This document shows positions 8,170 through 51,408 of a stretch of 64,000 nt of DNA, one piece after another. A program made the position numbers and the translations under genes. The DNA lies in the NCBI GenBank assembly GCA_963664115.2, contig CAXWPJ010000012.1, positions 64,001 through 128,000 of the forward strand. The letters are read 5' to 3'. The stretch is from Terriglobia bacterium (GTDB lineage Bacteria; Acidobacteriota; Terriglobia; 20CM-2-55-15). Positions within the stretch are counted from its first letter, which is position 1. Each line of letters begins with the position of its first letter. The notes under the pieces are model-generated. The model saw only the letters and a program-made list of their open reading frames with translations, did not search any database and was not told the DNA's origin.

Positions 8170-8210
8170 AGTTCCTCCGTATCGGGTCTATTTCGGGTGG
8201 GTGTCTGCCG

Positions 8211-8666
8211 GCGGGTGCGCTGTAAGCCGAATTCTGTTCCCCGACCGGGGCCGGGGCGGCAATCATTCATCTGGATCCCGGCTTTCACCGGGATTCGAGC
8301 GGCCTACCCGGAAGCTCGGACGAGCCGTCCTTCGACGCGCCTAAGCGCGACACACTTCCCTATTTGGCCTTGCTCCGTGTGGGGTTTGCCAAGCCGGTCC
8401 GTCACCGAACCGCTGGTGCGCTCTTACCGCACCTTTTCACCCTTACCGCTATTAAATTGAGGTCAGAGCCCTATTTCCCCTTTTAACCGGAACATTCCCG
8501 GCCGTCGAAATTAGGGAAATAGGGCTCTGACCCCAATTTCAAACAGCGGCGGTATATTTTCTGTGGCACTTTCCGTCCCTTTCGGGCCCCCGAATTACGG
8601 GGCACACTGCCCTGTGGAGTTCGGACTTTCCTCTCCCTTGACGGAAGCGATTGCCCACCCACCCGC
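8211..8666 (-). ncRNA. rnpB: RNase P RNA, bacterial type A, with enlarged P12
   Basis: GAGGAAAGTCCGAACTCC, AGTGCCACAGAAAA, GGTAAGGGTGAAAAGGTGCGGTAAGAGCGCACC, ACAGAATTCGGCTTA; P1 GCGGGTG/CACCCGC. Confidence 0.96.
8454..8539. repeat. Palindromic element inside rnpB P12
   Basis: 26-bp arms AAATTGRGGTCAGAGCCCTATTTCCC at 8454-8479 and 8514-8539; the one mismatch is G.U in the RNA sense. Confidence 0.8.
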
Positions 8667-24772: not shown

Positions 24773-24845
24773 GCCTAGGTAGCTCAGTCGGTAGAGCGCT
24801 GCCCTGAAAAGGCAGGCGTCGGCGGTTCAATTCCGTCCCTAGGCA
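24773..24845 (+). tRNA. tRNA-Phe(GAA), CCA not encoded
   Basis: Acceptor stem GCCTAGG/CCTAGGC, D arm GCTC/GAGC, anticodon arm CTGCC-CTGAAAA-GGCAG, T loop TTCAATT. Confidence 0.95.
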
Positions 24846-45155: not shown

Positions 45156-45279
45156 AGCTCGAAATTACTATCCTAACATCTCTAATGGTTTGGAGTTTTC
45201 GTTCGAATTGTAGATACGGGCAGGCCGTTGAAAGCATTGTGGTCTCATGAGAGTGTTCACGCTAAGAACTTCGTGAAAC

Positions 45280-45480
45280 AAGATTTCGCTCGGTCGTTCA
45301 AGCGGCTGACCATCTCGCGCGCGTTCCACGCGTGGGCCGAACGACCGGCGACCCTCTCCATCATCCTTGATGGAGAGGCGTATTGGGGATTAAGAAATGT
45401 TGAAGCCGTTCTTAAAGATAACCCGCAGCGTTCCTCGCTGCGGGTGGACAACGAGGCGGTAGCCGAGGCGTCGGAGTAAT
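45280..45480 (-). ncRNA. Candidate structured ncRNA, copy 1 (three GGA-loop hairpins); family not recognised
   Basis: Homologous to 51102-51292, with identical blocks and compensatory stem changes. Confidence 0.65.
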
Positions 45481-45586
45481 TAGATAATCGGATCGAACCG
45501 CGCCAAACTGCTAATCACCGAATTACTTAATCAGGACGCCAGGAGAGACTAAGAACGCCGTCAACAGCACCGCTACAGCTGATATT

Positions 45587-47687: not shown

Positions 47688-48523
47688 AAACGCTGGGTCA
47701 GAAGCAGGTATCAGGAACCAACTCATCCTCCGGTGTCATCCTTGAACTTCGAAATGTAACGAAGTTCTACGGCGACCTGCGGGTGCTCGACGACGTGTCG
47801 TTTCAGCTCAGGGCGGGAGAGACGAAGATCATTCTCGGCGGTAGCGGCTCTGGAAAGTCAACCATGTTGAAGTTGATGATGGGACTGGAACGTCCTGACG
47901 ATGGGACGGTCATGATAGAAGGTCAGGACATCACGCGCATGAACGAGCGGACGCTCGGCCGGATTCGACCGAAGATCGGCATGGTGTTCCAGGAATCAGG
48001 ACTGTTCGATTCTCTCTCCGTCTTTGACAACGTCGCTTACCGCCTCTATGAGTTGAACCTCGACGAGGATGAAATCGAGGAACGAGTCCGAAGAGTTCTC
48101 GGTTTTGTTGGCCTGGAAGAAGCGATTGACCGTATGCCGTCTGAACTGTCGGGCGGTATGAAGCGGCGCGGCGCGTTGGCACGGACTCTGGTTTCTGAAC
48201 CCAAGATCATGCTCTACGACGAACCGACTGCCGGTCTGGATCCAGTTACCTCGCGCCGCATCAACGAGCTCATCATACGGTTACGGGATACGCAGGGAGT
48301 CTCGGGCGTGTTCGTTACCCATCGATTGCGTGATGCGTTTACACTGGCGTCTGAATACGCCCTGGAATCTAACGGCAGTTTACAGTTCAAGCGAGAGGAC
48401 GGTACTTTTTGTCTGGCCCACACCCGCTTTGTCATGCTCAATCTGGGCAAGATCATTTTTGAAGGACCCGACGAAGTACTCCGAGAGTCGAAAGACCCTT
48501 ACATACAGAAATTTTTATCTTGA
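47684..48523 (+). CDS. mlaF: MlaF-family ABC ATPase
   Basis: GGSGSGKS, LSGGM, YDEPTAGLDP. Confidence 0.9.
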   Translation: MKTLGQKQVSGTNSSSGVILELRNVTKFYGDLRVLDDVSFQLRAGETKIILGGSGSGKSTMLKLMMGLERPDDGTVMIEGQDITRMNERTLGRIRPKIGMVFQESGLFDSLSVFDNVAYRLYELNLDEDEIEERVRRVLGFVGLEEAIDRMPSELSGGMKRRGALARTLVSEPKIMLYDEPTAGLDPVTSRRINELIIRLRDTQGVSGVFVTHRLRDAFTLASEYALESNGSLQFKREDGTFCLAHTRFVMLNLGKIIFEGPDEVLRESKDPYIQKFLS

Positions 48524-51036: not shown

Positions 51037-51101
51037 TAGTCCTGCTTTCTGAGTCAGAGATTCGTCACTTAACAGATTCGTCTTTCCGATCTGATCATTT
51101 T

Positions 51102-51292
51102 ATTACTCCGACGCCTCGGCTACCGCGTCTTTCCTCTGAAAGCGGTCCACCCGCACCGGAGGACCGGTGCGGGTTATTCTGGGACAGGAGCTAACGTTCC
51201 GCCAATCCCCAATAAGCCTTGCCATCAGGAAGATGGCGAGGGTCGCCGGTCGTTCGGCTAGGATGGCCGATTGAACGACCGAGCGAAATCTT
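51102..51292 (+). ncRNA. Candidate structured ncRNA, copy 2; family not recognised
   Basis: Homologous to the reverse complement of 45280-45480; G.U pairs favour this strand. Confidence 0.65.
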
Positions 51293-51408
51293 AATTGCAG
51301 ACCTTTAAATCCACTGCACCTGGATACAAGCGACCATTTGCGTTCAAATTTCGGTCTCAGGGAGTGCCAATATAGGAAGGAAAATCTCGAAGCTATCCGA
51401 ACGTCCGT

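Follow-up and report, generated by a model that had tools for sequence, protein, structure and literature searches.

The GGA-loop hairpins analysed here, which lie in a window of 64,000 nucleotides (the whole stretch of DNA under study, from the genome G000, C12:64001-128000), belong almost certainly to an IS630-derived MITE, that is, a non-coding element without a transposase, with many dispersed copies and with empty sites in relatives. The core of this element and its loops are very probably under selection. The explanation of the conserved core that we put forward, with somewhat less than even confidence, is that it is transcribed and that, after decay of the ends, its GGA loops bind a flagellar-type CsrA.

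Two copies lie in the window. Copy 2 is a unit of 280 bp (51042..51321, + strand, ends placed against the family profile) flanked by a pgsA-like gene (+) and a LolA-like gene (-). Along the + strand it consists of a decayed left terminal inverted repeat of IS630 type with 15/22 matches (51042..51063), a module M1 with a conserved stem and an inner hairpin, here in the form with a 12-nt extra hairpin (51110..51147), hairpin A with an 11-bp stem and the loop AGGA (51149..51174), hairpin B with a 10-bp stem and the loop AGGAA closed by C-G, i.e. CAGGAAG (51217..51241), hairpin C in its short form with the loop AGGAT and a variable 4-nt bulge (51242..51286), and a decayed right terminal inverted repeat with 11/22 matches (51300..51321). 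Module M1 is common to a second genus, and its outer pair covaries. Copy 1, of 291 bp, occupies the gap from aroC (-) to def (-) at 45251..45541 on the - strand, where the same parts are found as a left terminal inverted repeat (16/22, 45520..45541), a short-form M1 (45447..45472), hairpin A with the loop AGGAA (45421..45445), hairpin B with the hexaloop AAGGAT and C-G closing (CAAGGATG, which fits CANGGANG; 45353..45378), hairpin C in its long form with the loop TGGAA (45286..45352) and a right terminal inverted repeat (14/22, 45251..45272). The motif TCAAGGATGA is present at 45361-45370 (-), and its second match in the window (47736-47745) is within a gene. The six GGA loops reported by the sequence-only reading are real, being AGGA, AGGAA and AGGAT in copy 2 (51149-51286, +) and AGGAA, AAGGAT and TGGAA in copy 1 (45445-45286, -). 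On either strand copy 2 folds better than all of 200 shuffles (z -4.9 and -4.0). A tRNA-like reading was rejected, as ARAGORN gives tRNA-Phe alone, elsewhere in the window (24773-24845, +), and a small-ORF reading of the core was dropped by eye on account of second-position changes. An RNase P RNA of class A is also found in the window, at 8207-8666 (-).

The hairpins had been taken for a stand-alone sRNA gene in two copies. A profile search of the 4.9-Mb genome of the window gave 42 full and 22 partial copies instead, and the hairpins proved to be the core of a high-copy MITE of about 280 bp with IS630-type ends. The family profile rests on 121 full copies (42 from G000, and 35 from G002, 27 from G001, 10 from G004 and 7 from G003, the four congeners, for which the set holds the fetched copies and not every existing one). 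It gives a 280-bp unit running from TAGTGTCCTGAGTCAGAAGTTC to its reverse complement, and conservation outside it drops to about 20-40%. Reading outward from the core, decayed inverted repeats of 22 bp of IS630 type appear. The same 22-mer ends bound a full IS630 of 1183 bp in G106 (L121, 381-aa transposase), have a near match on an annotated plasmid IS630 (L129) and are perfect at both ends of L075. At L053 we find a clean 280-bp insertion into CTAG with a TA target duplication, the right copy of which has one base changed; this is the one site where the duplication is legible, the other 21 junctions listed being too diverged.

At 60 of 71 syntenic sites no copy is detectable in G000, with remnants in at least four of these rows. 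The aroC-def site has a 2-bp gap in G003, is empty in G001, and holds a left-end remnant in G004 and a different subtype in G002. At the pgsA site G001 and G004 have no copy, G003 gave no alignment, and G002 has a damaged copy. Hairpin B is missing from this copy, and the same pgsA-lolA gap of G002 (L246) also contains a further short repeat and an element that by eye is IS5-like. With loose thresholds, an IS630-type end is recognised on one or both sides of 80 of the 121 copies, 9 have an IS1-type end, of the kind that bounds PF03400 elements in G000, and 32 have neither. No cognate transposase was found in G000. Because the many IS630 copies of this genome carry other ends, having the first five bases alone in common, the element is probably immobile there, as far as its sequence allows us to judge.

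Several observations on neighbouring mobile DNA may be recorded. IS630 copies with unrelated ends directly abut five MITE copies (G000 C2:407430, C9:547851, C9:831020, C7:77242 and C10:180377), which suggests reuse of the CTAG site, and about 25 near-identical IS630 copies of G000 have one in-frame TAG in common. Other Acidobacteriota carry elements of 130-280 bp with the same IS630 ends and different hairpin cores, some of them REP-like (L093, L097, L102, L116, L123). Two 3118-bp IS1-family elements with passenger genes (L069:163-3280 and L071; G000 C4:64362-67479 and C6:129405-132522) encode an HTH plus IrrE-like peptidase M78 protein of 368 aa and a 228-aa protein without a match. A further IS1-family element (L070; G000 C10:484010-487415) encloses a Mutator-family IS, and among its small passengers is one that by eye has an aspartyl-protease-like motif.

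BLAST found the element in each of the 4 congeners and, weakly, in one further genome, and gave no match in the remaining 35 of 40 relatives. Exact matches to a 13-mer of the 3' stem number 103 in G002, 29 in G001, 28 in G003 and 13 in G004, and the copy numbers in these congeners are tens to about 100. Genomes with a matching motif are labelled Terriglobia, Acidobacteriota. The 5' module M1 has 18-19 occurrences in G022 and G526 of a second genus (g3), and elsewhere among 401 genomes of the class it gave 2 single matches judged to be chance. Carriage by phages was rejected, since the 2 viral matches were both chance, inside an ORF. On plasmids we found matches to the ends alone, none spanning 80% of the element. 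Copies were also seen in MAGs labelled Gammaproteobacteria and Verrucomicrobia, there on short contigs (L076, L080), through either mis-binning or transfer.

Constraint on the core shows in 7 cross-species pairs of copies at the same site. Their terminal repeats are 51% and 58% identical, their subterminal parts 47% and 60%, the A-B linker 59% and the C bulge 11/21. In the same pairs M1 is 95% identical, stems A, B and C are 93, 91 and 98% identical (copies outside G000 were chosen by an exact stem C match and those of G000 by the core profile, which inflates stem C and touches the loops, M1 and the same-site contrast less), and the GGA of loop B is kept at 21/21. Four-fold sites compared between G000 and G002 are 77% identical in pgsA and 59% in aroC; the ends and linkers (47-60%) have diverged near the synonymous-site level. 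Core identity is 93% when the ends are under 55% intact (n=43) and 95% when they are at least 75% intact (n=36). Stem pairs were counted, since the structure that RNAalifold derived from the gapped alignment as a whole was poor. In 51 aligned short-form copies 96.5% of the cells are paired and 15/37 pairs show two-sided change, with 0/500 shuffles as high, and the stem changes are compensatory, a pattern that may also arise from kinship or from template switching in palindromes. Same-site pairs bear different module types, which points to exchange between copies. Single copies are dispensable, because 60/71 syntenic sites are without a detectable copy and truncated copies are common.

Of the loops themselves, the claim that all of them display GGA stands for both copies in the window, but over the family it fails for many long C loops (GGA in just 13/37) and some A loops (89/120). 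GGA is kept in 97/116 parsed B loops and in 73/79 short C loops (C loops of 5/121 copies were not parsed and a few A-loop parses remain off). In the second genus 34/34 A loops have it, with ten different loop sequences. As a control, GGA on either strand is present in 14/114 other strong intergenic hairpins. The further claim that GGA persists while the stems change is borne out, as it lies far above the neutral level in three loops and in the second genus. Two or three GGA loops occur in 99/121 copies and none in 4/121. The changes seen in loop B affect the first G in about 14 cases and the second (middle) G in one (about 1/114), and two loops are flipped. The base 3' of GGA in loop B may be U, A, C or G, with G in 1/97 cases. 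The short C loop reads CAGGAUG in 65/79 copies, often inside ACAGGAUGU, near the SELEX consensus RUACARGGAUGU as given in the available text of PMC7652899.

No csrA gene is present in the window, as had been noted before, and a csrA search of G000 finds two homologues. The first comes after flgL and fliW; its product keeps an arginine at the E. coli R44 position, which we take to have an RNA-binding role in CsrA, and its RNA-binding end looks intact. The product of the second, which stands alone (L002:1402-1629), is without that arginine, matches 43/53 profile positions and has an altered C-terminal RNA-binding segment. Most genomes of the family likewise have a second csrA with a short match. 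Six flagellin-like genes were found (L285-L288, G000 C9:22514 and C4:31607), several with sigma-28-like boxes (by eye) and CsrA-type hairpins in their leaders. A CsrA of standard specificity is likely to be active in the host, because 4/6 flagellin leaders carry CANGGANG sites, one with the loop of copy 1 hairpin B. The elements hold 85/1078 intergenic CsrA-like motifs in about 2.6% of the intergenic DNA. The co-occurrence of csrA and the RNA, earlier suggested as a check, is seen in all 7 multi-copy carriers, but it says little because csrA is present in 22/24 family genomes, as against 6/34 genomes for the module. Within genus g3, the module and csrA are both present in G022 (99% complete) and G526 (85%), in neither of which fliW was found; G553 has csrA and fliW without the module, and G006 and G016 have neither csrA nor the module. 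This pattern, of one or two events, fits dependence on CsrA. The csrA of G526 and G022 (L219:1501-1749, L221:1501-1750) is of flagellar type and lies outside any flagellar locus, between a vWA-type gene and a VapBC-like pair (names by eye).

The loops are likely selected because GGA is kept relative to the control, in the same-site contrast and in the second genus. With csrA beside fliW and CsrA-type sites in flagellin leaders, CsrA is the best candidate ligand of the loops, at about even chances. Several facts speak against this reading, as CsrA binding would leave the conservation of the stems and of M1 unaccounted for, GGA is poorly kept in long C, copies are readily lost, read-through favours the TCC strand, and csrA is far wider in distribution than the element. 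Regarding transcription, no conserved promoter was found, with one weak promoter-like match (9/12) and an upstream region 47% identical in same-site pairs, and no terminator was found on the + strand. The public RNA runs X1, X2 and X9, consisting of contigs with small shares, contain pieces of related copies and neighbour genes at a depth of about 3-10, too low to tell transcription or strand. A gene runs into the element on the TCC strand at 99/121 copies and on the GGA strand at 70/121, and GGA retention in B and short C loops is independent of an upstream same-sense gene (96/111 vs 74/84). A replication-polarised motif was rejected, there being no relation to GC skew (12/11/11/8).

Other explanations of the conserved core have to be weighed. 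An ordinary MITE may have been kept at gene ends for the structure of its RNA, which on either strand could serve as a terminator, an exonuclease barrier or an RNase III site, its loops riding along by gene conversion. Such roles have been described for Correia and ERIC elements in the available text of PMC2229807. The covarying stems and the exchange indicated by different module types at the same site agree with it, as does the location of the G000 copies, 21/42 of which lie in convergent gaps against 223/1424 of all gaps. We nevertheless regard it as unlikely, as gene conversion by itself fails to account for GGA being kept where the adjacent base, the nearby bulge and the first A-loop bases vary, or for its retention at 34/34 over the ten loop sequences of the second genus. 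The constraint may otherwise act on DNA, if REP-like hairpins are recognised by some nuclease or recombinase that copies or shuffles modules between MITE ends. Modules do occur between three kinds of ends (IS630-type, IS1-type and, in genus g3, a second IS630-like type) and in inverted pairs, loop flips occur, and variants of M1 resemble GNA mini-hairpins with tandem G-A pairs, a feature of REP-type repeats. Yet no Y1, GIY-YIG or RT gene stands beside any copy in G000 and no mobiliser recurs among 3569 ORFs from the fetched loci. The middle G of loop B, changed in so few copies, is unlike a GNA triloop, and flips are rare, which makes constraint on DNA quite improbable in our view. Five reverse transcriptase genes of 446-496 aa, three scoring identically, were recorded at L015-L019, unlinked to the element.

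The strand that matters could also be the opposite one, with UCC loops in read-through RNA acting as anti-Shine-Dalgarno seeds or as ligands of another factor. In tandem gaps of the 121 copies the read-through strand is TCC rather than GGA in 42:13 cases (21:1 from G002, about even in G000), the TCC strand folds better in 71/100 copies, and M1 would form its tandem G-A pairs on that strand. The orientation bias in read-through could, on the other hand, come from selection against GGA-sense insertions within operons. In stems B and C the high-frequency G-U alleles are those of the GGA strand (51:12), and over all stems G-U exceeds A-C on that strand by 68:33, by 49:32 (p 0.07) without one column, with 17:21 in stem A. 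Also, a G after GGA, which would extend the pairing to AGGAGG, is nearly absent from the B loops. We consider action of the UCC strand decidedly improbable. Still more remote is the proposal that the GGA loops pair with three conserved internal UCC tracts as pseudoknots or kissing contacts. Two tracts do keep TCC (85/121 and 104/121 copies), but the first keeps it in 24/121, so that not all three are conserved, and the top 40 covarying pairs include none between a loop and a tract. Counted against shuffles for tract 3 with loop B alone, the pairing is 79%, a level reached by 361/500 shuffles.

Returning to binding of CsrA, the course of events may have been as follows. An IS630 transposase acting in trans would have carried the modular hairpins, as its cargo, to CTAG sites close to the ends of genes. 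The termini of the element would then have decayed, while purifying selection, aided by exchange of modules between copies, held the core. The GGA strand would be transcribed through read-through or from some promoter, and the two or three loops of each RNA would bind CsrA. Tens of copies together might form a dispersed CsrA buffer, or they might serve as CsrA-dependent tags on carrier RNAs; each copy would contribute little, so the loss of single copies would be tolerated. The full form of this proposal, in which a domesticated MITE of 40-100 copies is a transposon-spread sponge, i.e. an RNA antagonist of FliW-type CsrA and its substitute where fliW has been lost (G022, G526), is possible though on balance doubtful. 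If it is true, one cell would have both FliW and an RNA antagonist of CsrA, and here would be a regulatory RNA 'gene' made up of nothing but a family of dispersed repeats. According to the available text of PMC7652899 it has still to be settled if any species has FliW and sRNAs acting jointly on CsrA, and with this element a single RNA and a single small protein would suffice for a direct test. Should CsrA fail to bind, the element would be a new family of MITEs whose conserved core calls for another explanation. It is also a measured instance of a bacterial MITE whose interior stayed constrained after its ends had died, which is how domestication into a regulatory RNA is expected to look.

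Our literature search, with subscription papers outside its scope, found nothing on this element or on MITE-borne CsrA sponges, and the available part of PMC13443453 does not mention Acidobacteria. At the gathering thresholds of Rfam there was no match for the element, in the window region or at 7 loci. REP and REPIN elements of RAYT transposases are extragenic hairpin modules in mosaic and inverted arrangements. The present element is likewise built of hairpin modules in such arrangements, but it is bounded by DDE-type inverted repeats. Membership was rejected on a search of G000, where no Y1 gene is flanked by the repeat and the nearest copy to either of the two Y1 genes is over 20 kb off. 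Correia and ERIC elements are MITEs with structured RNAs, and RUP is mobilised with IS630-Spn1 (PMC2229807, available text). The element is like RUP in being non-coding, intergenic and present in many copies, with inverted repeats matching an IS630, TA ends and a predicted structured transcript (same source). It differs from IS630-mobilised MITEs in having a 280-bp modular core of several hairpins instead of one long stem, far more conserved than the ends, with GGA loops kept, in occurring also between IS1-type ends, and in that the cognate transposase was not found in G000.

Among RNAs that bind CsrA, it shares with CsrB/CsrC and RsmY/RsmZ (Rfam clan CL00106) GGA hairpin loops with several sites per RNA, and its loop variants follow the CsrB repeat, CAGGA(U/A/C)G (PMC7652899, in the text available). 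Unlike them it has long stable stems, with two or three sites in each unit where they have many, it is a dispersed mobile repeat, and its host uses a FliW-linked CsrA. The SELEX hairpins in the same source mostly have four or fewer pairs, as against 10 bp or more in the stems of the element. Membership in the RsmZ family of Rfam was rejected (PrrB_RsmZ, 15.8 bits, E 0.25, against a gathering threshold of 44), leaving a weak local likeness. The original suggestion of a CsrA-type RNA is in part upheld, by the kept GGA, the CsrB-like repeat variants, the presence of csrA and the flagellin-leader sites, but not by the MITE nature of the core or the score under the RsmZ cut-off. The flaA leader of Campylobacter, as described in the available text of PMC4894983, also has two GGA loops in a FliW-type CsrA system, and loop B of copy 1 fits the same CANGGANG motif. 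The sites of the element are 33 nt apart (B to C) as against 21 nt in flaA, and it is a transposon-derived gene-end repeat known from sequence (PMC4894983 for flaA). By descent, then, the element is a member of the IS630-derived MITEs and not of the CsrB/Rsm families, though by analogy it may work like these or like the flaA mRNA sponge.
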